Of a stretch of DNA of 64,000 bases, positions 5,756 to 46,840 are shown piece by piece. The notes beneath the pieces were generated by a model that searched no databases, had not been told where the DNA came from, and saw nothing but the letters and a program-made list of their open reading frames with translations. How positions within the stretch are numbered: position 1 is the first letter of the stretch; each line of letters opens with the position of its first letter. Position numbers and translations under genes: made by a program. The stretch is from an uncultured Gammaproteobacteria bacterium. GTDB lineage: Bacteria; Patescibacteriota; Patescibacteriia; Patescibacteriales; UBA12465. Location of the stretch: the NCBI GenBank assembly GCA_964470695.1, contig CAYYDR010000002.1, positions 8,401 to 72,400 on the forward strand, in the 5' to 3' direction.

Positions 5756-6937
5756 TTATCTTGTGTCCTTAATGGACATGACGAAGAAGAAGCCGGATAG
5801 CATGATAACCGCTAGGAATAAGAATAAATATTGGAGGGGGAAGAAAACTAGGATACTAACAGCTAAGATAGAACCAAGAGCTTGGCCTAAGGGCGTAGTG
5901 GCGCGGAAAATATTAATTTCTTCAGTATCTTCTACATCAGTAATTTTGAAAAAATAAGTGTCGCGCATAGCTTCTACTAGAGCCGCTCCGACGCGGCTAA
6001 TAAACAGGATTAAGGCCCAGAGCCAGGCGCTAGGAATGGAAATATAATAAAATAAGAAGAGGGAAACAGTTAGGATTAAGAAGCCAGCTAATAAAAATTC
6101 TTTTTCGCCTAGGTATTTGTCGGCTATTATCCCTGCCGGGATTTCAATGATTATGAAAGGAATTAACATGATAGAAAATATTGGTCCTAATATTTCCCAG
6201 CCCATGCCTAAATTTCTGAAAAGATGGAGGGGGATATAAATAACCGCAGAACTAAAGAATATCTGCAGTAATAAGGAAATAAAGAATATCCCTCTTAAAT
6301 TTGGCCGCCGCCACATTTTTTTAATAGCTAGTAAGAGGGGCTCGTCTTTGTATTTATTATGATCCTGTAACTCTCGCCCCTGATGTAGAAAGATAAAAAA
6401 GAAGGGGACAGTTAGAACAGCGGCGATTAGGAATATTAAAGTATATTCCCCCTTAGCCATGAGATAAACAGCCACTGTTGGCGATATTATCCAGCCGATA
6501 TTTATGAAAGTAAGATAAATAGTTCTTATTCGTCCGGTTAGGGCATTAGTAGAAAAGCTCTTTACCAAGAAGTCCATGTTAATCCAGACCAGGTTTGAAC
6601 TAATAGTAAATAGGATTACAGATATCATGGCTAGTGCGGCGTTGGTAGATATTGCTAGGCCCAGCAGAGAGCTGGCGTATAGAGCTAATGATATTTTAGT
6701 TAAAAAATAATTAGTTAACTCTTTTATTAAGCGGGGAAAAACTAAAATGGCCGCTACTGCTAATAGGTTAGCAACAACAAAATAGACCCCCATTGTTTGG
6801 ATGCTAATAAATTCGCCTAAAAAATTTGATTGGACATAGGCCGGCAGAGCGCCGGAGAAAGCTAAAAGCAAGCTAAGCAGGTATAGAATTGATAGGCGCT
6901 TGTTATTCTTAGCTAATTGTTTTTTGGATTTTGGCAT
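5756..6937 (-). CDS. MFS-type transporter
   Basis: 393 aa with about 12 hydrophobic segments and a central loop. Topology is MFS-like; substrate unknown. Confidence 0.6.
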   Translation of the reverse strand: MPKSKKQLAKNNKRLSILYLLSLLLAFSGALPAYVQSNFLGEFISIQTMGVYFVVANLLAVAAILVFPRLIKELTNYFLTKISLALYASSLLGLAISTNAALAMISVILFTISSNLVWINMDFLVKSFSTNALTGRIRTIYLTFINIGWIISPTVAVYLMAKGEYTLIFLIAAVLTVPFFFIFLHQGRELQDHNKYKDEPLLLAIKKMWRRPNLRGIFFISLLLQIFFSSAVIYIPLHLFRNLGMGWEILGPIFSIMLIPFIIIEIPAGIIADKYLGEKEFLLAGFLILTVSLFLFYYISIPSAWLWALILFISRVGAALVEAMRDTYFFKITDVEDTEEINIFRATTPLGQALGSILAVSILVFFPLQYLFLFLAVIMLSGFFFVMSIKDTR

Positions 6938-7733
6938 GGGATTTTGTCAGTAATAAAACGAAGGCCGCGATGATAACTAGACTGGCTAATTGCGGCCAGC
7001 GTAAGCCCCAAACAACCGGGGCTTCGTCTATCCTAATAAATTCTAAAGAAAATCTTAATATGGAATATGATATCATATAAACACTGACCGAACAAACCTG
7101 AAAGTTATGGTCATTTTTTTTGTTTTTTATGGCGTAGAAGTTCCAAATAATTAGGGCCAGCCCAATAATTAGGCAGCCCAAACTTTCATATAAAAAAGTC
7201 GGCTGGAAAAATGGTGAATTGATATATTGCCATGGCCTATTTATTAAGTTAATAGGAATACCCCATGGCAAATTAGTAGGCAGGCCAAATAATTCTTGAT
7301 TAAAATAGTTGCCCCAGCGTCCTATAGATTGGGCGATAGCTAAACCGGGCGCGAGTATGGCTCCTAGCCGCCAGAAATTTATTTGTTTACGACAGGCAAA
7401 GCTCCAAACGATAAACAGGCCGGCGATAAGGCCGCCGTGGATTGCTAGCCCGCCCTTCCAAATAGCTAATGTCTGCCAGGGGTGCTGGTAATAATAGGGT
7501 AATTGTAAAAAAATATCGTATAGCCGCGCTCCGATTATGCCGCCGATAATTAACCAGAAGGAAAGGTCAAAGATTATGTCCGTGGTCAAATTGTAATATT
7601 TAGCTAGTTGGAAACTGATTGCTAAAGCAGTTAGGATGCCTAAGACAATAAAAAGGCCGTACCAATAGATAGTGATAGGGCCGTAAGATAAGAGAATGGC
7701 CTGCGGCTCAAAAGTATGTAAGAAGCTCATCAT
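6909..7733 (-). CDS. lgt: prolipoprotein diacylglyceryl transferase
   Basis: 274 aa, polytopic, with the Lgt signature GRWGNYFNQELFG. Its 3' end overlaps the downstream MFS gene by 29 nt. Confidence 0.9.
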   Translation of the reverse strand: MMSFLHTFEPQAILLSYGPITIYWYGLFIVLGILTALAISFQLAKYYNLTTDIIFDLSFWLIIGGIIGARLYDIFLQLPYYYQHPWQTLAIWKGGLAIHGGLIAGLFIVWSFACRKQINFWRLGAILAPGLAIAQSIGRWGNYFNQELFGLPTNLPWGIPINLINRPWQYINSPFFQPTFLYESLGCLIIGLALIIWNFYAIKNKKNDHNFQVCSVSVYMISYSILRFSLEFIRIDEAPVVWGLRWPQLASLVIIAAFVLLLTKSHAKIQKTIS

Positions 7734-10471: not shown

Positions 10472-11074
10472 TTATTCAATAACCTGGATCTTAGCGGTCT
10501 TAACTCCAAAGTGGACAGCATCATGTCTTTCTTTCATCCAGACATCAACGCGGTTAGGGTGTTTCTTATTCATTCGGTCTCTAACTATGAAGACGCGATC
10601 GCCAAACAGCTCGGGGATTTGGACCTTGGTTCCAAATTTTAAAAAGTTGGCTGCGATAGTATCTTCCTCGCCGTGGTCGCAGACATTAAATCCGTTAGCA
10701 GTGGTACAAGGATCATCGTCAGTTTGGGCGGCCTCAGAGTTATAGGCAGTTATGACATGTACGCTGGTTTTTAGAACTTTAGAGGCGGGGGCAACTGGAA
10801 GGACGCGTCTACCGGTTTCAGTTTTACTATTAGGTGAAGACAAGTCAGAAGTCTGTTGGGAAATAGTCTCATCCATGTCCGAGTTTTTGATTAGGGAATC
10901 ATTGATGATAAGGTCTTGTTCGCTAGCCTTTGCCTGGCTAACCGCTTCGTCGGCTAAGGCCGGTGTGTAGAATAGGACAAATTGGAAGAAACAGGCAATA
11001 ATTATCAATAAAATTAGCTGGTGGCGGCTACTGAGAGGCACAATTTCCTCCTTTATAATCTGGAGCATTTTCAT
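10472..11074 (-). CDS. 3D-domain protein (MltA/RlpA-like double-psi beta-barrel; putative peptidoglycan-lytic)
   Basis: 200 aa. N-terminal TM/signal anchor, low-complexity linker, then a C-terminal segment whose spacing of conserved Asp residues matches 3D domains of YabE/YocH-type wall hydrolases: ITAYNSEAAQTDDDPCTTANG...DTIAANFLKFGTKVQIPELFGDRVFIVRDRMNKKHPNRVDVWM. Confidence 0.65.
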   Translation of the reverse strand: MKMLQIIKEEIVPLSSRHQLILLIIIACFFQFVLFYTPALADEAVSQAKASEQDLIINDSLIKNSDMDETISQQTSDLSSPNSKTETGRRVLPVAPASKVLKTSVHVITAYNSEAAQTDDDPCTTANGFNVCDHGEEDTIAANFLKFGTKVQIPELFGDRVFIVRDRMNKKHPNRVDVWMKERHDAVHFGVKTAKIQVIE

Positions 11075-11207
11075 ATTTTATTTAATATTAGCTAGATTAA
11101 AAAACCCCTACTTTATCATGAGCATGATAGTTAAGCAGGGATTTTCTTAACTGCTAAGTGTAGCATGGGTTAGCTAAAAAGTCAATGTATAAGTTGTGGA
11201 TAATCTA

Positions 11208-11236
11208 TTGACGTATTTTGTTAATTATGATATTAT
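11208..11236 (+). promoter_or_regulatory. sigma70-like promoter for the lipoprotein gene
   Basis: TTGACG, 17-nt spacer, TATTAT, about 100 nt upstream of the ATG at 11336. The AT-rich background makes such matches common. Confidence 0.4.
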
Positions 11237-11335
11237 GAGATGATAGTTAAATAGAAAAAATCGCTTAAAAAGACTATTTTTGTTCGTTTAAAACGGAATT
11301 CAATAACTTATAATAAAGGAAGGAAGGGTAGAAGG

Positions 11336-12094
11336 ATGAAAAACACAATTTTTTCATTGTTTTTGTTAATTATCGCCATTATTTTTTCTGGCTGCGCCGA
11401 AACAGCTACTATCTCTTTGGGAGGTAAGACTACCGAAGAAATCGCGGCTTCCCAGAAATTATTTTGGGAACAGATTGATCAGTATAAAGAAAATATTGCC
11501 AATTTAGAAAGTAATAATAACGCTTTGGCAGCCAAAATGTCAGTCTCGGGTCTATCAAAGGAAGTAGCGGTAAAATATTCTGAGCAGATTAAGGCTAACG
11601 AATTGTTGATTATAAAGTATCGTAGTCGTATTCTTAATTTGGAGGATATGGTTGACGACTTTACAGTTCGAAGCGCTGGTAGTGATCAGCAGAAGTATAT
11701 TCATCTTAATGGACGTGATGTTAAAAAAACATCTGAAGCCTACATGATGATAGAATATGCCGAGAACGCCGGAAGGAAAGCTATCAATAATGCGGACCAG
11801 TTGGGACTTAATAGTGCGGCTGGACTTCAGGGTATTTTGGAGAACAATCGCAACGACGAAGTAATAGCCACTACTACTGGTCCTGGAGGGTTTTTAATTG
11901 AATTCAAGATTGGCCGAAAGAGCAAAAGCCAGACATTTCAATTGCCATGTATGGGCGAATTCACAACGACTTTTGTATCGTGTGAAAATGCACTGGACAG
12001 GGAAAGTATAAAAAAAGTGGTGGCGCCTGGCGTGACTTATTACGACGGCACTACCCCGTATGCCTACAAGGCAACGGCGATTAGAAAAAACTAA
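11336..12094 (+). CDS. lipoprotein of unknown function
   Basis: 252 aa. Signal peptide ending in the lipobox-like IFSGC. AGGAAGG Shine-Dalgarno upstream. No recognisable domain. Confidence 0.55.
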   Translation: MKNTIFSLFLLIIAIIFSGCAETATISLGGKTTEEIAASQKLFWEQIDQYKENIANLESNNNALAAKMSVSGLSKEVAVKYSEQIKANELLIIKYRSRILNLEDMVDDFTVRSAGSDQQKYIHLNGRDVKKTSEAYMMIEYAENAGRKAINNADQLGLNSAAGLQGILENNRNDEVIATTTGPGGFLIEFKIGRKSKSQTFQLPCMGEFTTTFVSCENALDRESIKKVVAPGVTYYDGTTPYAYKATAIRKN

Positions 12095-12102
12095 TTGATA
12101 CA

Positions 12103-12132
12103 AAAAGGGGAAGTCTTTAAACTTCCCCTTTT
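12103..12132. terminator. bidirectional terminator
   Basis: AAAAGGGGAAGT-ctttaa-ACTTCCCCTTTT: perfect 12-bp stem between convergent genes. Confidence 0.75.
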
Positions 12133-12152
12133 ATAATATCTTTTGTTAATAT

Positions 12153-12554
12153 CTATACCGCCCCCATTGATCCACCCGTTCCGCTAAAAGGCAGGTATTT
12201 AAAGACAAAATAAGTTATCCCCCAGGCCGCTAGGACTATGATTAGTCCGATTAAAGCGGTTTTTATTGTGCTTTGCGCTTCCTTAACCATTTCTTCATTG
12301 CCCTGCGATGTCATCCAGCGGAAGCCTGATAAGACGATAAGAACTACAAATATCACCGCTAGAAGGCTCAGAGAGGCCTTGATCACATTAGCGACAATAT
12401 CACCAATACTAACTTGGGTGAAGCCCGCCTCTTGTTTTACTTCGCTGGCAAAACTGCTGGCCGTGTCCGTATTGATTAGACCCTGGGCATAGACGGTAGA
12501 AATGGTTGAAGCAAGCATGGCGATAGAAAAAATAGTAGCTAATATTTTTTTCAT
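12153..12554 (-). CDS. VirB2/TrbC-like small pilin-family protein, array copy A6 (last in operon)
   Basis: 133 aa. Signal peptide (..TVYA|QG), variable exposed segment, two TM helices joined by the conserved core SGFRWMTSQGNEEMVKEAQSTIKTALIGLIIVLAAWG. Confidence 0.7.
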   Translation of the reverse strand: MKKILATIFSIAMLASTISTVYAQGLINTDTASSFASEVKQEAGFTQVSIGDIVANVIKASLSLLAVIFVVLIVLSGFRWMTSQGNEEMVKEAQSTIKTALIGLIIVLAAWGITYFVFKYLPFSGTGGSMGAV

Positions 12555-12564
12555 ATTTTTATTT

Positions 12565-12951
12565 TTAACCCAGGATAAATCTATCTAAAATAAAGGTCCA
12601 AATAGCCCAGGCTGATAAGGTTACGATTAATCCGATGATCGCTCGTTTTATATAGTTTTTGGCTTTAGTAACTTTTTCTTCGCTGCCCTCTGCTATCATC
12701 CATTCGTATCCACCTAGGATAATCAAAATTATAAAGACAGCACCCAAGAGACTAAAGGCGGCGCGGATGATGGTGCCGACTATGATAGGTAGGGATGATT
12801 GCTCGTATCCGCCAGTTTCAGCTACTGCTTTTAACATTCCTAAAGATGAGCTAGCTTCTGAGACGCCAGTTTGCGCGAAAACAAAATAGGGAAGAATTAA
12901 GATAGCAATGAGAAAGAATAAAGATAGGATGGGCCGTAAATGTTTTTTCAT
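12565..12951 (-). CDS. VirB2/TrbC-like small pilin-family protein, array copy A5
   Basis: 128 aa. Signal peptide (..FVFA|QT). Core GGYEWMIAEGSEEKVTKAKNYIKRAIIGLIVTLSAWA. 10-nt gap to A6. Confidence 0.7.
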   Translation of the reverse strand: MKKHLRPILSLFFLIAILILPYFVFAQTGVSEASSSLGMLKAVAETGGYEQSSLPIIVGTIIRAAFSLLGAVFIILIILGGYEWMIAEGSEEKVTKAKNYIKRAIIGLIVTLSAWAIWTFILDRFILG

Positions 12952-12962
12952 AATATTTTTAT

Positions 12963-13328
12963 TTATTTTCCGCCAAGAATTTTAACAAAGAAGTAGGTCA
13001 GAGCGTAGGCGCCGACGACAACTATTAAACCGATAATCGCTTCTTTAATGGTTTCTTTACCTCTTTCAACATTTTGTTCGTTGCCGCCTGCCATCATCCA
13101 GTTTATTCCGCCGTATATAACAAGGAGAAGAAAAATGGTTCCGAGAATTGATAAAATAATAAAAATAACATCGCTTAAAGCCCCAGTCACAGTAACATTG
13201 GGGTTATAGGCTTTACCCGCTGTTTTAAGAGGAGAATTGAAAGCATCGCTTAAGTTCTGCCCGGCTTGAGCGGATTTTGTGTATGATAGAGAAAGTAGTC
13301 CTGATAGATAATATATTATCTTTTTCAT
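12963..13328 (-). CDS. VirB2/TrbC-like small pilin-family protein, array copy A4
   Basis: 121 aa. Signal peptide (..KSAQA, cleavage position ambiguous). Core GGINWMMAGGNEQNVERGKETIKEAIIGLIVVVGAYA. Confidence 0.7.
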   Translation of the reverse strand: MKKIIYYLSGLLSLSYTKSAQAGQNLSDAFNSPLKTAGKAYNPNVTVTGALSDVIFIILSILGTIFLLLVIYGGINWMMAGGNEQNVERGKETIKEAIIGLIVVVGAYALTYFFVKILGGK

Positions 13329-13337
13329 AGATAATAA

Positions 13338-13736
13338 TTAAGTTAAAGCTTTATTACTGAAATATTCAATCACGAAGTAGCTGATAGCATAAGCCGCCAT
13401 AACTATTATAAAGCCAATAATTCCGGCCGTAATAATATTTTTAGCCGTGTCTACCTTAGATTCATTGCCGCTTGCTAGCATCCAGGTTATTCCTCCGTAT
13501 ATCATTAACCCTAGAAAGACCACTCCTAAGAAGGTTAGGAGCTGCCTAACAACAGTGCTCGCTACGCTTTCAGGAGTTAAGCCTTTAAGGTAATCACTGT
13601 ACCCGGCCTGGTTAGCGGTCGCATCAAGGCCGCTTTCTTTTTTAAAATCATAAGATTGAGCCAGGGCGACACTGCATAACATCAGGAACGCGATAACTGA
13701 AGTAAATAGTATTGTTTTTAGTTTATTGCTGGTCAT
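13338..13736 (-). CDS. VirB2/TrbC-like small pilin-family protein, array copy A3
   Basis: 132 aa. Signal peptide (..VALA|QS). Core GGITWMLASGNESKVDTAKNIITAGIIGFIIVMAAYA. Its start overlaps the A2 stop (ATGA). Confidence 0.7.
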   Translation of the reverse strand: MTSNKLKTILFTSVIAFLMLCSVALAQSYDFKKESGLDATANQAGYSDYLKGLTPESVASTVVRQLLTFLGVVFLGLMIYGGITWMLASGNESKVDTAKNIITAGIIGFIIVMAAYAISYFVIEYFSNKALT

Positions 13737-14137
13737 TGTTGTGCGAATTTACTGCCCAGAAATACCGTTATAGCATAAGCGGCGAAAACAATTATTATAC
13801 CTATAGTAGCATTAACTAGGAGGTTCTTTGATTGGCTTATTTGCTGGTCATTACCGGCGGCTGTCATCCAGAGTATGCCAGCATAAATCATTAAGCCGAA
13901 GAAGAGGACGCCAATAAATGATAAGACTAGGCCGATGACCTGGCCAGTTTTCGTTGATATAAAATTTTTGTATTCGGAATCTGGTTTGGCGACCTGAGCT
14001 TTAAAGGCTTGTACCTTGCTGGCGGACAGGTCTAGCCCGCCGACTGTCTGGCTTATGTCCTGGGCTTGGGCGGCAAAAGAAAAGAAAGCTGACAAGCCGA
14101 CTAAAATCAAGCAAAATGATAATATTTTCTTTTTCAT
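13733..14137 (-). CDS. VirB2/TrbC-like small pilin-family protein, array copy A2
   Basis: 134 aa. Signal peptide (..AAQA|QD). Core AGILWMTAAGNDQQISQSKNLLVNATIGIIIVFAAYA. Confidence 0.7.
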   Translation of the reverse strand: MKKKILSFCLILVGLSAFFSFAAQAQDISQTVGGLDLSASKVQAFKAQVAKPDSEYKNFISTKTGQVIGLVLSFIGVLFFGLMIYAGILWMTAAGNDQQISQSKNLLVNATIGIIIVFAAYAITVFLGSKFAQQ

Positions 14138-14153
14138 ATTAAGAAATATTTAT

Positions 14154-14196
14154 TTACTGCTTTAAATACGAAATATATTCCTATTTAAAGCAGTAA
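14154..14196 (-). promoter_or_regulatory. 15-bp perfect inverted repeat between array genes A1 and A2 (candidate intra-operon attenuator/partial terminator)
   Basis: TTACTGCTTTAAATA (14154-14168) and TATTTAAAGCAGTAA (14182-14196) with a 13-nt loop. A second short GC hairpin (CCCTCAT/ATGGGGG on the minus strand) lies just upstream at about 14197-14216. Confidence 0.4.
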
Positions 14197-14229
14197 CCCC
14201 CATTCTCCATGAGGGCTACTATTTCCCCT

Positions 14230-14607
14230 TTAAGTTAAAGTATTGTTAAGGGTGTCAATAACGTAGAAGGCAATACCCCAAGAAGCCAAGATGATTATTA
14301 AGCCGATTACACCAGCGCCTAATAATTTTTTAGCTTCGCCAGTCTTTTCTTCATTACCGCCAGCTGTCATCCATTTGAAACCGCCTAATAAGATGATGCC
14401 GACTGCGATAACGCCCAAGAAGCCCAAGGCTAGGTTTATTACCTTGCCGATAATAGTTCTTGGATCGGTGTTAGTCAAAGTGCCGTTTAGGCCAGTGCTA
14501 ACTTTGTCTGTACCGAATAGATCGTTACTTTGAGCCATGGTTACGGCTGGGATAACTAATAAGGAAATAATCGCCAAAGAAATTAAATGCTTAGAAATTT
14601 TTTTCAT
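14230..14607 (-). CDS. VirB2/TrbC-like small pilin-family protein, array copy A1 (promoter-proximal; candidate major subunit)
   Basis: 125 aa. Signal peptide (..VTMA|QS). Core GGFKWMTAGGNEEKTGEAKKLLGAGVIGLIIILASWG. It is the only array gene with a strong SD (GAAAGGTGGTGAAAT-ATG). Confidence 0.72.
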   Translation of the reverse strand: MKKISKHLISLAIISLLVIPAVTMAQSNDLFGTDKVSTGLNGTLTNTDPRTIIGKVINLALGFLGVIAVGIILLGGFKWMTAGGNEEKTGEAKKLLGAGVIGLIIILASWGIAFYVIDTLNNTLT

Positions 14608-14655
14608 ATTTCACCACCTTTCTAGTTTTTATGATTTTTAAATTTTATATCTTTA

Positions 14656-14706
14656 ATTTTAGCACATTATTTTAAACAAGACAAATAAAATTGGCTGTGC
14701 TAAAAT
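14656..14706. promoter_or_regulatory. 11-bp perfect inverted repeat in the divergent promoter region (candidate operator)
   Basis: ATTTTAGCACA (14656-14666) and TGTGCTAAAAT (14696-14706), 29 bp apart. It lies between the pilin-array start and the divergent 533-aa membrane protein gene. Confidence 0.3.
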
Positions 14707-14738
14707 AGCTATAGAATCGCCTATATTAGCTAGTTTTT

Positions 14739-16340
14739 ATGCTTAATTTTTTTAAAAAAGTCAATTTCAGCCATTGTTTTTGGTTTTTATTTTATTTTTT
14801 TATTTTTTGTCTCTTATTGCGTAACTCCTACAATTATTTAGACCCGGACTTCGGCTGGCATTTACAAGTCGGTCAGGAAATAGCCCTGAACCACATCGTT
14901 CCCGACCTTAATCATTATAATTATCCGTATACTGGTTCTTGGGTAGATCATGAGTGGTTAGCAAACTATTTGCTATATTTAGGTTTTCAAGAGGGCGGGT
15001 ATTTATTAGTTTCTTTATTTTTTGCCCTTTTAATAGTGATTATATTAGTTTTACTCCATCTCTGGGCGCGTAGAACCTGGCCGGATATACCGACAGGACT
15101 GGTAGTTTTTTTTCAGTCTCTAGGAGTAGCGGCCTCTTTGCCGCACTTCGGCGTTCGCATCCAAGAAATAAGCTTATTGTTTCTGCTACTGACATTACTG
15201 ATTATTGATAATTATAATCGTAACAGAAATTGGCGAGTTTTATGGTTTCTGCCGCCGCTATTTTTTATTTGGTCGTGTTCTCATGCCGGATTTTTAATGG
15301 GCTTATTTATCTTAGGCGCTTGGCTAGGCATTAAAGTCGGCGAGCGATTGCTGGCTAGGTTTTGGCCAAGAATAAAAATAGATTTTTCTCGTTTATTATC
15401 TAAAAAAGACGGTCTGTTATTTGCTGTCGTTGCCGTCGTCGCTTTTCTGGTTACTTTGTTAACCCCGTATCGCTTGGAACTGTATTCTTTCTTGAGCGGG
15501 TATGGCAATATCTTTTACCAATCGCATATTCAGGAGTGGCTCCCCCAATCCTCATTCCCCTTTAATTATTGGCAGCTTTTTTATTTGAGTTTAGTGGTAG
15601 GATTGTTTGGTTTGTATGTATATGAGGTATTTAAAGGTCCTAAATTTTCTAAATTAGATCTCTGGCAGGCGTTCTTAGTCGTTTTGTTCGTGGCCCTAAG
15701 TTTTAAATCGCGCCGTCATTTTCCCTTGATGTTCGTGGCGACCTTTGTCGGGCTTCTTCAAGCTTGGCGCCATATTTTTTATGATTTAAAAGTCCCTAGT
15801 CGGATTTGGGGAAACTATTGGCTGAGAGCTTATTTAGTTTTTTGTATTTGTCTGGTAGGCATCTTTCAGCTAATCCAGACCAGATTTACAACCAACCCGG
15901 CCCAAGCCTTTTGCGGAGAGTATCCCTGTGGGGCGGTTAAGTTCCTGCAAGCTAATCAGGTATACCGCAGCCTTAATATATTTAATAATTATGGCTGGGG
16001 CGGATATTTAATTTGGCAGCTTCCTGGCTGGCCGTTATTTATTGATGGCCGTATTCCCCAGACAGTTCTGACACATCAGACATATTTAGAAGAGTATTAT
16101 GAATTTTTTACCACCGATGATAATATTGCCAAGAAATTAAATCAGTACGACATAAAATTAGCTTTAATTCCGGCTGTTTATAAATCTATAGAAGCTAAAA
16201 ATTGGGAAAAAATATTTTTTATGATTAGGGATGAAGAATTAAGGCCTAACACAGCCTTGAGAGATTATTTCTATAAAACAAAAGATTGGGAATTAATTTA
16301 TAACGACGGTTCGGCGTTATTATTCAAACGAATTTATTAA
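14739..16340 (+). CDS. large polytopic membrane protein, GT-C-like (putative polyprenyl-phosphate-sugar-dependent glycosyltransferase)
   Basis: 533 aa. At least 10 hydrophobic helices followed by a soluble C-terminal domain of about 130 aa. A GT2 gene follows 3 nt later, the usual GT-C/GT2 pairing. No diagnostic motif recognised with certainty. Confidence 0.35.
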   Translation: MLNFFKKVNFSHCFWFLFYFFIFCLLLRNSYNYLDPDFGWHLQVGQEIALNHIVPDLNHYNYPYTGSWVDHEWLANYLLYLGFQEGGYLLVSLFFALLIVIILVLLHLWARRTWPDIPTGLVVFFQSLGVAASLPHFGVRIQEISLLFLLLTLLIIDNYNRNRNWRVLWFLPPLFFIWSCSHAGFLMGLFILGAWLGIKVGERLLARFWPRIKIDFSRLLSKKDGLLFAVVAVVAFLVTLLTPYRLELYSFLSGYGNIFYQSHIQEWLPQSSFPFNYWQLFYLSLVVGLFGLYVYEVFKGPKFSKLDLWQAFLVVLFVALSFKSRRHFPLMFVATFVGLLQAWRHIFYDLKVPSRIWGNYWLRAYLVFCICLVGIFQLIQTRFTTNPAQAFCGEYPCGAVKFLQANQVYRSLNIFNNYGWGGYLIWQLPGWPLFIDGRIPQTVLTHQTYLEEYYEFFTTDDNIAKKLNQYDIKLALIPAVYKSIEAKNWEKIFFMIRDEELRPNTALRDYFYKTKDWELIYNDGSALLFKRIY

Positions 16341-16342
16341 AT

Positions 16343-17089
16343 ATGTTAGTAGATTTTTGTTTGCCGGTAAAAAATGAAGAGAAAATTTTACGCCATAGCC
16401 TGGATAGATTGTTAGAGTATTGCCGGCTGGCAAAATTTAGATTTTCTTGGCATATTGTCGGCGTAATAAATGGTTCCGACGATAGCTCATTAGATATTTT
16501 TAAGGAATACGCGAATCGTTATCCCGATGAGATTAGCTGGTTTGAAGTTAAAGAAGCAGGCCGCGGCGGAGCGTTAAAAAAGTATTGGTCCCTCAGCCAG
16601 GCCGACATTCTTTCTTATATGGATTCTGATTTGGCCGTTTCTCTGGATAACATTCCCGCCTTAATTCGCCCTATTTTAGATGGTGAAAGCGATTTAGTAA
16701 TCGGTTCTCGTCTACTGGCGGGAGCGGAGTTAAAACGATCTTTAGGGCGTGAAATTATTTCTCGGGCCTATATTTTTATTTCCCGCCTATTGCTGCAAGA
16801 GCGGGTTTCTGATTATCAGTGCGGATTTAAGGCCTTACGCCGCGACACTTTTAATAAATTAAAACCTTTTCTTCAAGATAACTATTGGTTTTTTGATACA
16901 GAGTTAATTGTTTTAGCTAAACGTTTAAACTACCGAGTTCAAGAAATCCCTACTAATTGGCAAGAAGCTCGTTATGGTCGGAGGCCCACAACAGTTAAGT
17001 TAGTACGAGATAGCTTAATTTTTATGAAGAATCTGTGGTTTTTCAGACAGCGTTTAAAGCACGTTATAAAATATCCTGATAATGTTTAA
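16343..17089 (+). CDS. family-2 glycosyltransferase (polyprenol-phosphate sugar synthase, DPM1/GtrB-like)
   Basis: 248 aa. GT-A features: N-terminal CLPVKNEE, DxD-type YMDSDLA, and a C-terminal FFDTEL segment. Confidence 0.7.
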   Translation: MLVDFCLPVKNEEKILRHSLDRLLEYCRLAKFRFSWHIVGVINGSDDSSLDIFKEYANRYPDEISWFEVKEAGRGGALKKYWSLSQADILSYMDSDLAVSLDNIPALIRPILDGESDLVIGSRLLAGAELKRSLGREIISRAYIFISRLLLQERVSDYQCGFKALRRDTFNKLKPFLQDNYWFFDTELIVLAKRLNYRVQEIPTNWQEARYGRRPTTVKLVRDSLIFMKNLWFFRQRLKHVIKYPDNV

Positions 17090-17474: not shown

Positions 17475-17858
17475 TTAGGGGATATATTTTTTTAGCTCCT
17501 TTTCATGCTCTATCTGCTTCTTTTTAGCGGGGATAGATTTAAGATCTTTCAAGATGCAGGCTAGCCAGATAATCATTAATATCGCCCATAACCCTAGCCA
17601 AAAGCGAGCTGAGAAGAAAGGCACTGTTTCGTAGTTAAAAAATAATATTATTACGCCCAGGATAGTGTTAGCTAGAAAAAAAGAATATAGGCGCTTTAAT
17701 AAGCCTCGGTATAGGCTATTTTTCATTTTTAGCCAAGCGGTAACAATAGCTAGGACGGCTAGCAATATTAGAAAGCCAACTAACATTTTATAGGCGGATG
17801 GGACTAGTGGCTCTGGTCTCAGGTTAAACCAATAACTCAGAGTAATTAGATTTTTCAT
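17475..17858 (-). CDS. small membrane protein, unknown function
   Basis: 127 aa with 3-4 hydrophobic helices and a basic C-terminal tail. Confidence 0.5.
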   Translation of the reverse strand: MKNLITLSYWFNLRPEPLVPSAYKMLVGFLILLAVLAIVTAWLKMKNSLYRGLLKRLYSFFLANTILGVIILFFNYETVPFFSARFWLGLWAILMIIWLACILKDLKSIPAKKKQIEHEKELKKYIP

Positions 17859-19114: not shown

Positions 19115-19615
19115 TTATTGGTTTGGTGCGGCTGGCTGGTCGGGCAACTGCTTTATCTTTATAGGCTGTTCATTGCTATCAAATGCTTCGCCATTCCAAT
19201 CTAGCCCAATTATTCCTAAGGAGGCTTTAATAATTAAGAAGCTGCCTAAAACTATTAATAATCCGATAATAGCCGCCACAAATATTTTTTTACCTTTTTG
19301 GACTTTCTCGCTAGATCCGCCGGATAGAAGCAGCTCCTGTCCGCCCATGATGAACATGAACAAGCATAATGAGCCAACTATGCCTAATATCCATCTAGCA
19401 ATATTAATTCCTAAACGGATAAAATCGTTAAGTTCGTAATTGCCGCAGTAAGTTCGGGGGTCCTGTTTTAGTTCGGCCGCTCTGTTTACGCAGTTAGCGT
19501 CGGCCGCCGCACCATGGGCGTCGGGCAGTATACCGGTAGATGCGGTTTGGGCCAAAGCAATATTACATATCAGTAATCCAAAAATGATGAGCGGGAAAAG
19601 GCTTTTTTTAAACAT
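19115..19615 (-). CDS. VirB2/TrbC-like small pilin-family protein, distal copy A7
   Basis: 166 aa. Signal peptide (..IALA|QT), exposed segment with two Cys, core GGQELLLSGGSSEKVQKGKKIFVAAIIGLLIVLGSFL that aligns gap-free with the array, plus a C-terminal tail of about 35 aa ending PDQPAAPNQ. Confidence 0.6.
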   Translation of the reverse strand: MFKKSLFPLIIFGLLICNIALAQTASTGILPDAHGAAADANCVNRAAELKQDPRTYCGNYELNDFIRLGINIARWILGIVGSLCLFMFIMGGQELLLSGGSSEKVQKGKKIFVAAIIGLLIVLGSFLIIKASLGIIGLDWNGEAFDSNEQPIKIKQLPDQPAAPNQ

Positions 19616-19629
19616 ATAATTTTTGTATA

Positions 19630-21009
19630 TTAATTAACAGTCTGTTGTACTTTAGAGGCGGCAGTATCAATAATGTCTTGTATTTTCTCGCCGGTATTTT
19701 TAACTACAATATCAATCATTTCTTTAAGAGCACTTTCGGCCGCTTGGACATTTTTACCTTTATACCAGCTTTTAGCGGTTAATACTTGGTCGGCAAAGAC
19801 GCCAATCTCATTGTCAGCTCTCTGGGTAGCTACTAGAGAGCGAAGAGCGGTTGGACGCTTGGTTTTTTCTAGATAACTTTTAACTTGTTCTTCTTTGGTA
19901 ATAAATTGGATAAAATCCCAGGCCTCGTCTTGGTGAGCGCTTTTTTTAGAAACGACTTCAACCCAGTAATTAGCAAAATTAATATTGGTCGGCGGGTTTC
20001 CTTCTATTTGGGGCATTTTAGCCACCGAAAAATTTAATTTTGGAGCCTGAGCCTTAATAGTAGCTAAATCATAGGAGTAACTAAACATTATTGCTAAGTT
20101 ACCGCTAATGAACATGCTTAAAGAATTTGGTAAATCACTATTCCAAGAATATGATTCCTTGGCGGGGTTAGAAAAATCGGTGTAAAAACGCAGAGCTTCT
20201 ATACCTGGGTTATAGTTGCTTTCTCGGCCAAATGGAGGGATTAGATTAAAAGCGACTTGTTTCCCGTCTGCCATCATAGTTGCTCCGTTTTGAGCCATTA
20301 AGACTGAGAGGATGTCACTGAAACGATTTATATTAGAACTACCGCCTAAGGCAACGCCAGCTTGGATTATTCCTTTTTTAGGATCTTGTTTAGTTAATTT
20401 CTTAATGTCTTGAAGGAATTCTTTATTCCAGTATTGAGGCGCCTGGCTAATCCCGGCATTATTAAATAAATCTTTATTATAGAACATCGCTAGGGTGTCT
20501 ACTGATAGAGGGAGGCCGTATATCTTTCCGTCGCTTAATATAACGTCATGGCTAACGGCATCAACAAAATTATCCTTTAATTCTTTCAAGGTTAAGCTAT
20601 TAGTCGTGCGCATTTCTAAAACCACTTCTTTCTTGACGGTTCCCTTGGCTACTGGGTAAACCATGCTGATAGTAGCCGGGATGGGGGCTAGTTTTGGCTG
20701 GTATTTTTCCATCCAAGTATTATGAATAGAAAATATATCCGGCCCGCGGTCTTCAGCTAAAGCATTTAAGAGTTCTGTTTCGTATTCTTCAAAACGAAGT
20801 TTGCGGTACTCAATAGTAATAAAGGGATGGATAGTCTTATATTTTGTAATAATATCCTGGAAAGCGTCTGGTCCATCAAAAACGCGCCAGTAGGTAATTT
20901 TGATGGGCTTCATGGCTTCTTGAGTTTTTTGGTCAGTCACTTTGCAGCCGAAACCGGAGCTTAATAAAAAAATGGCCAGCAGTAATAAAATACTTATTTT
21001 TTTAGACAT
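19630..21009 (-). CDS. ABC transporter substrate-binding lipoprotein (family 1, sugar-type)
   Basis: 459 aa. Lipobox LSSGFGC. Length and composition match extracellular solute-binding proteins. No permease or ATPase genes are adjacent. Confidence 0.65.
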   Translation of the reverse strand: MSKKISILLLLAIFLLSSGFGCKVTDQKTQEAMKPIKITYWRVFDGPDAFQDIITKYKTIHPFITIEYRKLRFEEYETELLNALAEDRGPDIFSIHNTWMEKYQPKLAPIPATISMVYPVAKGTVKKEVVLEMRTTNSLTLKELKDNFVDAVSHDVILSDGKIYGLPLSVDTLAMFYNKDLFNNAGISQAPQYWNKEFLQDIKKLTKQDPKKGIIQAGVALGGSSNINRFSDILSVLMAQNGATMMADGKQVAFNLIPPFGRESNYNPGIEALRFYTDFSNPAKESYSWNSDLPNSLSMFISGNLAIMFSYSYDLATIKAQAPKLNFSVAKMPQIEGNPPTNINFANYWVEVVSKKSAHQDEAWDFIQFITKEEQVKSYLEKTKRPTALRSLVATQRADNEIGVFADQVLTAKSWYKGKNVQAAESALKEMIDIVVKNTGEKIQDIIDTAASKVQQTVN

Positions 21010-31935: not shown

Positions 31936-33342
31936 TTAATTTTGGAGGCTGTTTTTTTCTCTCTGGTTAATTATATTTAAGAACCCTAACAGAGCTAGTA
32001 GGATCCAGAACATAGCCGATAAATCATTTTTAAAATAAGGAACGTCAACTAAGCCGTGTACAACGATAGCTATCATCGCAGAGAATAACCCCAAAATTAA
32101 ATATTTATCATTGGTTCCATTATTGTTTAATTTTTTAGTTAGCTGCCAGGCTGACCATAGGTAGCGCATAATCAGCCAAATAAATACTAAGGCCCCTAGT
32201 AGGCCTAACTCTGTCCAAAAATTTAGAAAAATATTATGAGGGTACATATATATTTCTACGGGCTGCCAATACTTGGTGCGCAAAGTAGAGCTAGCGTAAG
32301 TGATGGTGCCAAAATTTTCTAAGTTATCTCTGTTAAAAAATATTCCTTCCTGATGGTAGGGTTTTATAGCTGATTGATATTGGCTTAATCCAGCGCCCGT
32401 AATTAAACGGCCGTTCTTTAACATCTGTCCGGTTTCTTTCCATTGCTGCAGCCTGATTTGGCCCGATAAATCTTGCAGACTTAACTTAGTCATCACCAAA
32501 TTTTTGGCCGGTGTATTTAGAAAAATGCCGGCGGTTATAATAATGCCAGCCGTAATAACGATTAGTCTCGGTTTTTTACCTGCTAGTAATCCAAAAACCA
32601 ATAAGGCGGCGGCAACTCCAATTAGGGCCCCTTCAGAATGAGCGGCGTAAATAGCTGATAGAGAGATTATGATAGTCAGAGAGATAAATAATTTTTCTGG
32701 GTATTTGTCTTTGATATTTTTCCAATTATAAGACATAAGCCAGCCGCTAAATAATATTGTCAGTGGTGCGAGGTAGAGACCAACAGCGTTTGGATAACCG
32801 AAAAAAGAAACCGCCCGCCGCGTTTCCTCGGCCGCCCAAAATGGATTAGAAATAAAAAGGCCGGTTATTTTTTGAAATAAGGCAAAAATAGATACGGCGG
32901 CCGCAGAGATAAGAAGCGCCCACCAGATTTTTTTTAGCTCAGCTTTATTTTTAAAAACATTAAAGATTAAAAGGAATAGTAGTATTGGTTCAAAAAAATA
33001 AGCTTTCCATACACCCAGAGCACTGGCACTAAATCCGGCCGTCCAGACCGCCGCCCAAGAAACTATTAAGACTAGAATAACTTCCCAGGAGAATGGGTAA
33101 TAAACTTTATTGTTAGGGCGTTTAAATATTTCTTTAAATTGGGGGAGAAAATTTTTAATTGTCCAGGCAGTGAAATTAATCAGAATCATGGCTTCTAATA
33201 AGGTGAAAGGCAGCCCAAAGATTTTGAAACGAATTAAATAGGTCGGCAGTGAAGCTATTAGTAATAAAAGAGCCCAGTCTAAGCGCTTGAAGGCTAAGAC
33301 TGTAAATCCAACGATAAAAATAAATAAAGCCACGGTTGTCAT
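31936..33342 (-). CDS. O-antigen ligase (Wzy_C) family membrane protein
   Basis: 468 aa with at least 10 TM helices. Wzy_C-type motif YPHNIFLNFWTELGLLGALVF following a periplasmic loop. Confidence 0.7.
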   Translation of the reverse strand: MTTVALFIFIVGFTVLAFKRLDWALLLLIASLPTYLIRFKIFGLPFTLLEAMILINFTAWTIKNFLPQFKEIFKRPNNKVYYPFSWEVILVLIVSWAAVWTAGFSASALGVWKAYFFEPILLFLLIFNVFKNKAELKKIWWALLISAAAVSIFALFQKITGLFISNPFWAAEETRRAVSFFGYPNAVGLYLAPLTILFSGWLMSYNWKNIKDKYPEKLFISLTIIISLSAIYAAHSEGALIGVAAALLVFGLLAGKKPRLIVITAGIIITAGIFLNTPAKNLVMTKLSLQDLSGQIRLQQWKETGQMLKNGRLITGAGLSQYQSAIKPYHQEGIFFNRDNLENFGTITYASSTLRTKYWQPVEIYMYPHNIFLNFWTELGLLGALVFIWLIMRYLWSAWQLTKKLNNNGTNDKYLILGLFSAMIAIVVHGLVDVPYFKNDLSAMFWILLALLGFLNIINQREKNSLQN

Positions 33343-43746: not shown

Positions 43747-45960
43747 ATGTTGGAAAATAAAACCGATAATATAGATGTGCGTAGTTTTTTGTTCAGTAAT
43801 CTTAAGCCTTATGACGGCGATTCGTCATTTTTAGTCGGGGCTAGTTCAAAAACAAAAACTTTGTGGGCTAAATGCCAGGAACTTTTGGCTCAAGAATTTA
43901 AGCAGGGAGGCATTTTAAGTATTGATGCTGATAATCCTTCTGCTATTATTAGCCATCAAGCCGGATATATTGATAAAGACCTAGAAGTTATTGTCGGTCT
44001 TCAGACTGATAGACCATTACACCGAGCCATCAAACCCTTCGGCGGTATAAAAATTTTAGAGAAAGCCTGTGAAGAGAATAATGTTGAGTTAAGTCAAACC
44101 GTAAAAGATATTTTTACCAAATATCGTAAAACTCACAATGACGGAGTATTTGATGCTTATACTGATGAGATGCGCGCCTTGCGTAAAGCGGGAATATTAA
44201 CTGGCCTGCCAGATGGCTATGCTCGGGGGAGGATTATTGGTGATTACCGCCGGGCGGCTTTATATGGACTAGATGAATTAATTTCGGAAAAACAAGCTGA
44301 TAAGAAAAAGCTAGTCGGAGAAATGACTGATGAGCTTATCCGTTTACGAGAAGAAGTCAGCGAACAAATAAAAGCCCTTGAAGATATAAAAAAGATGGCA
44401 GCTAGCTATGGTTTTGACATTTCTCGTCCAGCTGAATCGGCGGCTGAAGCGGTCCAATGGACATACCTAGCTTATTTAGCGGCTTTAAAAGAACAAGACG
44501 GGGCGGCGATGAGCCTGGGTAATGTCAGCGGTTTTTTTGATATTTATATTGAAAGAGATATTGCTGCCGGAAAATTAACCGAAGAGACAGCTCAAGAATT
44601 AATTGATCAGTTTATCATTAAGTTGCGCCTAGTCAGGCATTTAAGGACTAGTGAATATAATCAGCTTTTTGCCGGTGATCCCACTTGGTTAACTGAATCT
44701 TTGGGCGGTTGTTGGAATAATGGTCAGCATAAAGTAACAAAAACTAGTTATCGTTTTTTACAGACTCTATATAATATCGGCCCATCGCCTGAGCCGAATT
44801 TAACTGTCCTATGGTCTAAAAAACTGCCTGATAACTTTAAGAAATTTTGCTCACAGGTATCACTAGACACTTCTTCCATTCAGTATGAAAACGATGATGT
44901 TATTCAGACTGTCTGCAAGGGAGATGATGATTACGGAATAAGTTGTTGCGTTTCTAAATTAAGTATCGGCAAGCAGATGCAATTCTTTGGCGCTCGCTGT
45001 AATTTAGCTAAGGCCTTGCTCATGGCTATTAATGGCGGCCAAGACGAGATGGCCGGCCTTAAAATTATTAATGGTTTAGAGGCATTACCCGATTCCGAGT
45101 ATTTGGATTATGAGGAGGTGATGGGTCGTTTTAAAAAAGCCATGCAATATTTAGCCGGCGCTTATATCAATACCATGAATGTTATCCACTACATGCATGA
45201 TAAATATTATTATGAAAAAGCGCAGATGGCTTTCTTGGATACTGATTTACGGCGAGTGATGGCTTTTGGAGTGGCTGGGCTTTCTGTCGTAGCCGATTCT
45301 TTAGCAGCGATTAAATTTGCTAAAGTAAAAGTGTTGCGCGATGATAGGGGGCTTAGCAAGAGTTTTGAAGTAATTGGAGAATTTCCTAAATATGGCAATG
45401 ATGATGACCGGGTTGATTCTTTGGCCCAAGAAGTAATTAGTATTTTTAATGAGGAATTAAATAAACATCATATTTATCGTGCCGCTAAGCCGACTTTATC
45501 AATTTTAACCATAACTTCTAACGTTGTTTATGGCCAAAAGACCGGAGCGACTCCAGATGGCCGTTTGGCTGGCCAGCCCTTTGCTCCCGGAGCAAACCCT
45601 ATGCATGGGCGAGATACGCTGGGCGCTATATCTTCTTTAAATTCAGTGGCTAAGCTGAATTATGCTGAAGCTCAAGACGGAATATCTAACACATTTTCAG
45701 TAACTCCTAATACTTTAGGAAAAAACCGAGAAGAACAAATCGCTAATTTAGTTTCTCTACTAGATGGTTATTTTAGCCGTCAGGCTTTTCATCTTAATGT
45801 TAATGTTTTGAATAAGCAGACCTTGTTAGCGGCCATTGATAATCCGGAACAATATCCGCAATTAACGATTCGGGTTTCTGGCTATGCGGTTAATTTTGTT
45901 AAGTTAAGCCGTGAACAGCAGCAAGAAGTTTTGGCTCGGACTTTTTTTGAATCAATGTAA
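43747..45960 (+). CDS. pflB: formate C-acetyltransferase (pyruvate formate-lyase)
   Basis: 737 aa. Glycyl-radical motif RVSGYAV near the C-terminus and the active-site Cys pair in GISCCVS. Confidence 0.92.
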
Positions 45961-46010
45961 ATTTATTCGTTGAGCTGCCGCCTATTTGTCTTTAGCCATA
46001 ATATGAAAAT

Positions 46011-46736
46011 ATGTTGAGAATCCATTCTCTAGAAACCTTTGGCACTCATGACGGACCAGGCATTCGTCTGGTTATTTTTACTCAGGGCTGTAATATGCGC
46101 TGTCTATATTGCCATAACATTGATACGCGCTTAACCGGGGGCGGACAAGAAATTAGCAGTGAAGAAATAATTAGTAAGCTAGAACAACAAAAAGAATATT
46201 TTCAGAACGGAGGCGGATTAACTATTTCTGGCGGAGAGCCGCTATTACAGGCGGAAGAACTTTTGCCGATTTTACGGGCGGTTAAAAAAAAGGGATTTAA
46301 CATCAGCTTAGATACTAATGGCTCTGTCTTTAATGAAACAGTTCGTAATTTATATGACCTTTGTGATTTGGTTTTATTTGATATCAAACACATCGGTGGC
46401 GATAAGCATCGCGCGCTCACTGGTTTAGATAATCAAATAACTTTAGACTCCATTAGATATAGAGAAGAATCAGGCCGCCCCTTCTGGCTGCGTTATGTAT
46501 TAGTTCCTGGTTATAGCGACGAGGCGTCTGATTTAGAAAACTTAGGAAAATATTTTAAAGACTATAAAAATATAGAGCGTTTAGAAATTTTGCCTTATCA
46601 TACTTTTGGCGTTTATAAATTTAAGGAAATGGGGTTGGATTATCAGTTAAGCGATGTGCTCCCTCCTACTACCAGCCAGATTCAGGCCGCTCAGACTATT
46701 TTGAGCCCTTATTTCAAGAATATTTATATTGGTTAA
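46011..46736 (+). CDS. pflA: pyruvate formate-lyase activating enzyme (radical SAM)
   Basis: 241 aa. CNMRCLYCHN cluster motif, GGGLTISGGEPLL, directly downstream of pflB. Confidence 0.9.
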   Translation: MLRIHSLETFGTHDGPGIRLVIFTQGCNMRCLYCHNIDTRLTGGGQEISSEEIISKLEQQKEYFQNGGGLTISGGEPLLQAEELLPILRAVKKKGFNISLDTNGSVFNETVRNLYDLCDLVLFDIKHIGGDKHRALTGLDNQITLDSIRYREESGRPFWLRYVLVPGYSDEASDLENLGKYFKDYKNIERLEILPYHTFGVYKFKEMGLDYQLSDVLPPTTSQIQAAQTILSPYFKNIYIG

Positions 46737-46840
46737 AGGTGTTTTAGGCTTGTTAATAATAATTAAAAGCGGTCTGATTGGCTTGGACAAGCCGCTGTTT
46801 TAGAGGTATTATTTATAATAGTAAGAAATAATTTAATTCT

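Follow-up and report, generated by a model that had tools for sequence, protein, structure and literature searches.

We describe a gene neighbourhood in a 64-kb window (the whole stretch of DNA that was analysed, 64,000 nucleotides of contig CAYYDR010000002.1, assembly GCA_964470695.1, from a patescibacterium) in which genes for six pilins of the type IV secretion system (T4SS) class stand between a lipoprotein gene and a gene for a 533-residue GT-C-fold glycosyltransferase. The reading that we prefer, and to which we give about an even chance of being correct, is that these genes make up a conserved module on the chromosome for a surface filament of T4SS type (VirB2-like) and that the GT-C enzyme glycosylates its pilins. 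The core of this module consists of the lipoprotein gene on the plus strand, pilins A1-A5 and A6 on the minus strand and the GT-C gene on the plus strand, usually followed by a family 2 glycosyltransferase (GT2) gene (Table 1). The strongest argument for functional coupling is that the pairing of pilins with the GT-C gene recurs through rearrangements of gene order. An earlier interpretation made from the letters and open reading frames (ORFs) of the window (the sequence-only reading) had proposed a module of wall hydrolase, lipoprotein, pilins and a glycosyltransferase pair, with its ATPase encoded at a distance. All ten ORFs of the region 10472-17089 were confirmed in place, and the coordinates and family calls given for all five gene types were upheld.

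Conservation of the pilin and GT-C neighbourhood

A scan for relatives of the GT-C protein, with one genome per species, yielded 80 loci (36-53% identity) from Falkowbacteria-like and other ABY1-type Patescibacteria. The ORFs of these loci were searched with a hidden Markov model (HMM) of the seven pilins of the window and with the other window proteins. A pilin array, nearly always of six genes, was divergent from the GT-C gene in 56 of the 67 species loci having at least 3 kb of upstream sequence, and pilin genes were present within 10 kb in 44 of the 47 loci with full flanks. The divergent-array state spanned the deepest splits of a neighbour-joining tree of the GT-C proteins. Loci without the array were scattered in six small clades of the tree, which looks like secondary loss.

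Because the signal in the 80 loci reflects shared ancestry to a large extent, more distant members of the GT-C family were examined. This set comprised ten informative contexts (E 1e-72 to 1e-124 against the profile). Genes of the family PF18895 (T4SS_pilin, VirB2/TrbC-like) adjoined the GT-C gene in seven of the ten, in at least five gene orders: the array was divergent from the GT-C gene in P0337 and P0385; the pilins were immediately upstream of it on the same strand in P0373 and P0370 and downstream of it in P0369; the GT-C gene lay within the array in P0372; and in P0366 the GT-C gene was followed by an SBP_bac_1 (SBP) gene and then by seven pilins. In the distant locus L094 the lipoprotein gene, six pilins (the A6 type beside the GT-C gene) and the GT-C gene are together within wholly different flanks, between NusA/H+-PPase and a PBP1 gene. 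The sequence-only reading had set conservation of the neighbourhood beforehand as a test that could refute it, and the pilin and GT-C part of the neighbourhood was found to be kept in both the related and the distant sets.

An independent case of the pairing of a pilin with an STT3-like protein comes from another class, Saccharimonadia. In Southlakia epibionticum ML1 the protein SEML1_0023, with no Pfam domain and an assigned STT3/PglB/AglB fold, abuts the T4SS pilin SEML1_0024 (PMC10633639, supplementary tables). The essential T4SS cluster is some 2 kb away from the two genes (PMC10633639). The word glycosyltransferase does not occur in the main text of PMC10633639.

The glycosyltransferases and the pilins

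The identity of the 533-residue protein came from structure comparison only, because the sequence searches were all empty. Pfam, NCBIfam and the PDB sequences gave no match, also when a 40-sequence profile was used, and the GT-C families of Pfam were unmatched at E<=10 for 40 members and at E<=0.1 for the 10 distant members. An AlphaFold2 model built on the 40-sequence alignment was confident (pLDDT 89, pTM 0.89). When this model was compared with PDB by Foldseek, the best 30 matches were all GT-C enzymes (probability 0.92-1.0, and 1.0 for the best 26), with yeast and human STT3 ranked first (TMq to 0.64), followed by DPY19, AglB, AftA, PglB, ArnT, ALG9, Pmt4 and EmbB. A separate match was to the C-terminal globular domain of AglB, which is extracytoplasmic. 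The GT-C-like call of the sequence-only reading was confirmed in this way, and no assignment to a non-glycosyltransferase family was obtained. The sequence D35-x-D37 directly after the first transmembrane helix (TM1) is invariant in the 40 sequences, as in STT3/AglB/PglB and DPY19 a D-x-D follows TM1, and further invariant residues are E72, R140, H182, E266, R326 and D436-G-R438. The modelled protein shows a GT-C fold with the usual acidic motif after TM1, and its donor would be a polyprenyl-phosphate sugar, since the gene shares an operon with a GT2 resembling Dol-P-Man synthase.

The protein differs from STT3, AglB and PglB in being shorter and in having no match to the Pfam STT3 model. The WWDYG motif is absent from its sequence, and the nearest conserved string, in the corresponding region, is NYGWGGY (416-422). 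The GT2 neighbour further speaks for a donor of the monosaccharide-phosphate kind and against a pyrophosphate-linked oligosaccharide, and the pilins have no conserved sequon. AglB glycosylates archaeal pilins and archaellins. In several loci without a divergent array (L038, L043, L047 and L062) a second polytopic protein of 417-823 residues is encoded between GT-C and GT2 and may be a second enzyme of GT-C type. The window also encodes another possible extracytoplasmic glycan-transfer enzyme, a Wzy_C protein of 468 residues (O-antigen ligase or PglL-PilO type; 31936-33342, minus strand).

The GT2 gene begins 3 nt past the end of the GT-C gene. The closest solved structures to its product are the Dol-P-Man synthase of Pyrococcus (5mlz, 4.5e-11) and ArnC (5e-6), and its NCBIfam matches (AglJ, Dol-P-hexose transferase, ArnC and PpgS) were all far under their cut-offs. 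The protein thus resembles polyprenyl-phosphate sugar synthases by sequence, and we claim no specific orthology. Of 61 loci, 38 have GT2 within 100 bp of GT-C and 52 have it within 4 kb. Both family calls of the pair proposed by the sequence-only reading hold, and GT2 is the less constant of the two partners. A 127-residue protein (17475-17858, minus strand), in which three membrane helices can be made out by eye and for which Pfam gave no match, was weighed as a flippase candidate but has no similarity to GtrA. Its gene sits in a block with genes for YraN, a methyltransferase (MTase), RodZ, pilin A7 and the SBP, in the order YraN-mem127-MTase-RodZ-A7-SBP, that is conserved across most related loci.

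All seven small proteins A1-A7 exceeded the gathering threshold of PF18895 (26.6 bits). They scored below the cut-off of NCBIfam NF045849 (Mbov_0395 pilin-like conjugal transfer protein; 24.9-36.4 against 40 bits), and we take them as related to that family and not as members of the equivalog. Alignment gives a common layout of a Sec signal peptide, a variable exposed segment of about 33 residues, TM1, a WMxAxGNEExxxxAK loop, TM2 and a short tail. The signal peptides of all seven end in A-Q or A-x-A-Q, and the mature pilins probably start with Gln. In Agrobacterium, VirB2 is likewise cleaved before a Gln. No prepilin-peptidase site of the form G/(F,M)xxxE was found at the pilin N-termini, where the cleavage context is A-x-A/Q, and no type IV pilin family was matched. 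By these features the six proteins of the array are assigned to the VirB2/TrbC-type T4SS pilins and not to the type IV pilins. The exposed segments contain 19-20% Ser+Thr against a background of 10.6% in the other window proteins, in agreement with the Ser/Thr richness of A1-A6 noted in the sequence-only reading. N-glycosylation at conserved sequons was considered and rejected, as no paralogue group has a conserved sequon.

The order of the paralogues is fixed. Among six-gene arrays from 48 species the same paralogue type was found at each position: counted from the GT-C gene, positions 1, 2, 3, 5 and 6 were A6, A5, A4, A2 and A1 in 48, 44, 46, 48 and 48 arrays, respectively, and position 4 (A3) was the most divergent. 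This match of position to type shows that the six pilins are ancient, non-interchangeable paralogues that form positional orthologues in a fixed order. A seventh paralogue, A7, has two conserved Cys in the exposed segment and a long C-terminal extension, and in all 43 loci with a pilin copy beside a RodZ-like gene that copy was of the A7 type. An orphan SBP_bac_1 gene (19630-21009, minus strand) lies 14 nt upstream of A7 with no ABC permease or ATPase alongside, and the pairing of such a gene with pilins was seen again beside GT-C in the distant loci L087, L090 and L091. Its product may be a filament-associated binding protein and not a transporter component.

VirB2-like pilins, and arrays of them, are known from the T4SS of Patescibacteria (PMC12102498), and S. 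epibionticum has an essential pilin series, SEML1_0014-0019 (PMC10633639). The present array resembles those described (PMC12102498, PMC10633639) in its PF18895 membership, its tandem divergent paralogues, its chromosomal location and the absence of a nearby relaxase. It differs in not standing beside virB4, in having six fixed positional orthologues in at least 48 species instead of variable amplification, and in the inferred architecture of major and minor subunits with a structured RNA, the GT-C coupling and the convergent lipoprotein. Such arrays have been suggested mainly to supply variation for adaptation to different hosts (PMC12102498). That idea does not fit an array whose six-paralogue order is fixed, which suggests major and minor subunits instead.

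Control elements, lipoprotein and putative wall hydrolase

A6 stands apart from the other pilins of the array. It alone has a strong Shine-Dalgarno site (AAAGGTGGTGA, with its complement at 14611-14621), it is the most conserved (median identity 63.5% against 41-53% for the others), and it adjoins the GT-C gene in all 48 six-gene arrays. A1-A5 have no Shine-Dalgarno sites and are packed tightly, with spacers of 9-11 nt and a 4-nt overlap of A5 and A4. Orthologues of A6 also retain a DPR motif. The spacer between A6 and A5, of 92 nt, folds into a double hairpin (z = -7.0). Of 15 other species tested, 13 have this structure too, as does the distant locus L094. When 28 species were aligned, compensatory changes occurred at 17 of 26 pairs, and 92.8% of the cells were paired, against 37-45% with slid partners and a level reached by none of 500 shuffles. 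The hairpins matched no Rfam family, and a loose motif search for hairpin 1 at other sites was uninformative because the motif is palindromic. We regard the double hairpin as a well-supported candidate for a new cis-regulatory RNA. A6 would be the major subunit, because it has the sole strong Shine-Dalgarno site, is the best conserved and is followed directly by a structured RNA, and A1-A5 would be minor subunits. The double hairpin may set a high ratio of A6 to A1-A5, giving one major and five minor subunits. The hairpin of the terminator after A1 has a folding energy of -24.2 kcal/mol (z = -3.5).

Two outward-facing promoters, whose -35 hexamers overlap in five bases, were placed by a promoter scan between A6 and the GT-C gene. 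Blocks of sequence in this control region are kept across 42 species, and the length of the A6/GT-C spacer clusters at 117-133 bp across loci. The pilin operon and the GT-C operon are thus shown, at the level of predicted promoters, to start from overlapping back-to-back elements. A search of regulon type with the conserved promoter core (AAACAAGACAAAT) returned a single exact site only.

The lipoprotein has a coiled coil and a C-terminal beta-rich domain bearing an LPGxY motif. Its gene has a strong Shine-Dalgarno site, and a gene for Lgt is present in the window at 6909-7733. The family is fast-evolving (median 29% identity) and gave no Pfam or PDB match, just coiled-coil noise and insignificant hints of a beta-sandwich. 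With an iterative HMM, 44 of 55 arrays were found to have a convergent lipoprotein gene at 51-121 bp beyond A1, and at 5 further loci another ORF with a signal peptide occupied this position. In the rearranged loci L022 and L050, and in the distant L094, the lipoprotein gene has likewise remained with the array. It belongs to the module as the convergent partner of the pilin array, and it is this array, and not the hydrolase proposed as its partner in the sequence-only reading, with which it pairs.

The putative hydrolase is a protein of 200 residues with a membrane-anchored N-terminus. Sequence-only identification failed: the Pfam 3D model (PF06725) was unmatched, and one of 25 homologues matched it weakly (E 0.03). 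JGI labels homologues as '3D (Asp-Asp-Asp) domain-containing'. In an AlphaFold2 model the C-terminal domain had pLDDT >85 and was matched by Foldseek to the RlpA-like PA4485 (E 1.7e-4), to YuiC (24% identity, E 2e-3) and to MltA (0.086). D166 and D177 are invariant in the family, and the likewise invariant N143 stands in what we take, from the spacing of the motif and not from a structural alignment, to be the place of the first of the three 3D aspartates. The model is compatible with a putative peptidoglycan lytic enzyme. Further invariant residues (E10, P13, S15, L22, F30, F35 and P38) lie in the cytoplasmic N-terminus and the membrane helix, and this pattern suggests a conserved interaction of the anchor, beyond the role of a signal peptide.

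The likeness of the 200-residue protein to YuiC, MltA and RlpA lies in the fold of the C-terminal domain, and the notion of an enzyme opening the wall close to a secretion locus recalls VirB1. VirB1 is a lysozyme-like SLT enzyme of another fold, and the 200-residue protein is not kept with the module outside its lineage. It is retained only where the synteny on the PPDK side is retained and is gone from the vicinity of the array in most distal-clade and all distant contexts. The 3D-fold hydrolase, which the sequence-only reading had counted within the module, is therefore a matter of lineage synteny, at most an auxiliary wall-opening enzyme, and falls outside the conserved core.

GC content is even across the window (0.37-0.42, except one 2-kb stretch at 0.33) and the flanks hold housekeeping genes. 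Origin from a phage or mobile element was rejected on the basis of the uniform composition, the housekeeping flanks and a GT-C protein without relatives in viral contigs. Genes for pyruvate formate-lyase, its activating enzyme and an ADP-forming acetyl-CoA synthetase-like protein are grouped at 43747-48937 (plus strand) in what looks like a fermentative energy block.

Table 1. Features of the pilin/GT-C region and of the window (positions are those of the 64-kb window).
Feature	Positions	Strand	Basis or remarks
Membrane-anchored protein, 200 aa, double-psi beta-barrel (3D/YuiC/RlpA-like)	10472-11074	-	Foldseek
Secreted lipoprotein, 252 aa	11336-12094	+	Signal peptide, lipobox IFSG-C
Intrinsic terminator ending the pilin operon	12100-12135		GC-rich hairpin and U-run, between the convergent lipoprotein gene and A1
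A1 pilin	12153-12554	-	PF18895, 40.2 bits
A2 pilin	12565-12951	-	PF18895, 44.3 bits
A3 pilin	12963-13328	-	PF18895, 41.6 bits
A4 pilin	13338-13736	-	PF18895, 37.0 bits
A5 pilin	13733-14137	-	PF18895, 27.7 bits
Candidate structured RNA, A6-A5 spacer	14155-14219	-	Two adjacent hairpins, no U-run
A6 pilin, promoter-proximal	14230-14607	-	PF18895, 41.3 bits
Divergent control region, 131 bp	14608-14738		Two back-to-back extended -10 promoters (promoter scan)
Predicted minus-strand promoter	14684-14656	-	TTGTCT, 17-nt spacer, TGcTAAAAT
Predicted plus-strand promoter	14678-14706	+	AAGACA, 17-nt spacer, TGcTAAAAT
Polytopic GT-C-fold glycosyltransferase, 533 aa	14739-16340	+	Structure comparison
GT2, Dol-P-Man synthase / ArnC / GtrB class	16343-17089	+	PF00535, 1.3e-19
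A7, seventh pilin paralogue	19115-19615	-	PF18895, 34.4 bits
Tandem T2SSE (PilB-type) ATPase, 1005 aa	54653-57670	-	Two complete domains and MshEN, TTG start

Competing explanations and biological meaning

In the mechanism that we propose, GT2 would put a monosaccharide on polyprenyl phosphate at the cytoplasmic face of the membrane, the lipid-linked sugar would be flipped, and the GT-C enzyme would transfer the sugar outside the membrane to the Ser/Thr-rich N-terminal segments and the C-tails of the Sec-exported pilins, the lipoprotein being a possible further acceptor. A6 would polymerise as the major subunit with A1-A5 as low-abundance minor subunits, in a ratio set by the Shine-Dalgarno difference and the A6-A5 RNA element, and assembly would be driven by a VirB4-type T4SS encoded elsewhere and not by a PilB-like ATPase. 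The acceptor is the weakest step. Glycosylation of the pilins is suggested by the linkage, the Ser/Thr-rich exposed segments and the topology of the enzyme, and we favour the pilins as acceptor because of the roughly twofold Ser/Thr enrichment and because the nearest structural relatives of the enzyme modify proteins. Of the glycosylation module of array and glycosyltransferases put forward in the sequence-only reading, the functional tie is backed by the linkage, and the glycosylation of the pilins themselves is something that we infer.

A precedent for the arrangement is TfpW of Pseudomonas aeruginosa group IV, a GT-C enzyme encoded directly beside pilA that uses a polyprenyl-phosphate sugar to modify Ser/Thr of the exported pilin (bioRxiv 10.1101/2020.04.19.049825). 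It differs in acting on type IV pilins with D-arabinofuranose; the pilins proposed as acceptors here are of the T4SS (VirB2) type. No sequence relationship was detected between TfpW and the 533-residue protein.

Several observations weigh against this reading. Much of the signal in the 80 loci is shared ancestry within one lineage, and other blocks, such as MTase-RodZ-A7-SBP, are equally stable there. In L022 and L050 the array and the lipoprotein gene are together and the GT-C gene is no longer adjacent, and three of the ten distant contexts lack pilins. Nine of 61 loci (L007, L021, L029, L030 and L051 among them) have no GT2 in the 10 kb downstream, and most distant contexts are without one. 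No flippase was identified, and no GtrA match was obtained among the neighbours of GT-C and GT2. The alignment shows no Ser/Thr position and no sequon that all paralogues keep, and N-x-S/T is in modest excess in the pilins (234 observed against 184+-11 expected, uncorrected for relatedness). Both SEML1_0023 and SEML1_0024 are non-essential in co-culture (PMC10633639). Finally, no VirB4-like ATPase was found in the window when every ORF of at least 400 residues was scanned; VirB4, VirB6 and other T4SS core genes were likewise not found in the window, and nothing resembling one was seen among the neighbours in the 10-kb flanks of related loci.

The alternative to be taken most seriously, which we nevertheless consider unlikely, is that GT-C and GT2 serve general envelope glycosylation (of secreted proteins, wall polymers or lipids) and stand beside the pilins by synteny or co-expression with no specific action on them. 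The pair does resemble Ppm1/Pmt, CsbB/YfhO and GtrB/GtrX, and the GtrA/GtrB/GtrX, CsbB/GtcA/YfhO and ArnC/ArnT systems (PMC11127046, PMC5836110) and actinobacterial Ppm1/Pmt likewise join a GT2 polyprenyl-phosphate sugar synthase to a GT-C enzyme in an operon. The GT-C family is also very large: a profile search of 1.84 billion cluster representatives gave 23,346 clusters (50% identity) with E<=1e-3, 2,413 of them with E<=1e-30. No pilin gene lies within 10 kb on either side of GT-C in L062, L072 and L075, and in these loci, as in L082, L092 and L093, the GT-C gene is accompanied by a GT2, by another polytopic protein or by genes for the cell surface, with pilins absent. One metagenome-assembled genome holds the paralogue L067, with no pilin in the sequence available around it, alongside the pilin-linked L008, and gene blocks as syntenic as this one occur in these genomes. 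Passive synteny, however, does not predict adjacency to PF18895 genes in at least five gene orders with different flanks, and the conservation of the overlapping-promoter control region across 42 species and the like pairing in Saccharimonadia also argue for a specific tie. The three-component systems differ further in their GtrA-type flippase, none having been found nearby here, in the Pfam families of their GT-C enzymes, to which the 533-residue protein does not belong, and in their usual acceptors (O-antigen, teichoic acids and lipid A), where the conserved neighbour here is a pilin array.

Less probable still is a GT-C enzyme that is functionally linked to the filament and, in place of the pilins, acts on the nearby wall or membrane (for instance on peptidoglycan or a secondary polymer) or on the lipoprotein, so that the filament can pass or is anchored. 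The linkage evidence fits this equally. The lipoprotein is an equally constant partner and its strong Shine-Dalgarno site marks it as highly translated, the pilins are without a conserved glycosylation site, and the module of L094 adjoins a PBP1-type peptidoglycan synthase and BacA. Pilins as acceptors are favoured over this by the best structural matches, which are protein-modifying GT-C enzymes (STT3, AglB and DPY19) and include the C-terminal globular domain of AglB, and by exposed pilin segments with about twice the Ser/Thr content of the window background.

We find it very improbable that the two-helix proteins are membrane-resident partners of GT-C, such as accessory subunits or a channel, that share with PF18895 just a hydrophobic hairpin. 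No pilus has been seen for any PF18895 protein of Patescibacteria, VirB4 and VirB6 are not in the window, and a fixed set of six with GT-C can be read as a stoichiometric membrane complex; but all seven proteins exceed the curated PF18895 threshold, the family occurs inside the essential T4SS cluster in Saccharimonadia (PMC10633639), and the asymmetry between A6 and A1-A5 suits major and minor filament subunits better than an equimolar complex.

The sequence-only reading had named the tandem PilB-like ATPase of the window as a candidate energiser. This ATPase is predicted to belong to type II secretion or type IV pilus machinery and would be the wrong motor, because the pilins are of the VirB2/TrbC type (PF18895), with Sec signal peptides and no prepilin motif, and pilins of this type are expected to be served by VirB4. 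Loci with virB4 are present in ABY1 genomes (PMC12102498). A type-IV-pilus-like filament energised by this ATPase is scarcely credible: the tandem T2SSE protein is present in the window, but its gene lies about 40 kb from the array among housekeeping genes, flanked by Translin-family and tRNA synthetase genes and not by pilus genes, and the pilins have A-x-A/Q signal peptides, no G/FxxxE motif and a PF18895 match.

Our preferred reading, a T4SS-type filament whose pilins are glycosylated by the adjacent GT-C enzyme, adds to VirB2-like arrays already known in Patescibacteria the GT-C coupling, the fixed order, the RNA element and the lipoprotein partner. Searches of the literature did not find a GT-C coupling, a fixed six-paralogue design with major and minor subunits, the structured RNA or the lipoprotein partner. 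With more hesitation we extend the reading to Patescibacteria at large, in which VirB2-type pilins may, tentatively, be glycoproteins modified by a dedicated GT-C family and assembled as an ordered heteromer, in which one major subunit is joined by five minor ones at a stoichiometry that the conserved RNA element determines.

The sole patescibacterium open to genetic manipulation cannot live as an epibiont without its T4SS and pilin series (PMC10633639). The hypothesis can be tested in that organism, S. epibionticum, where the STT3-like SEML1_0023 abuts the pilin SEML1_0024 and both are dispensable in co-culture. A glycosylated T4SS pilus would, to our knowledge, be the first. If the hypothesis is true, such a pilus would be a surface feature shared across a whole lineage of episymbiotic ultrasmall bacteria, a large GT-C family without a Pfam model would gain a function, and T4SS pili would prove to carry a post-translational layer that nobody has looked for.

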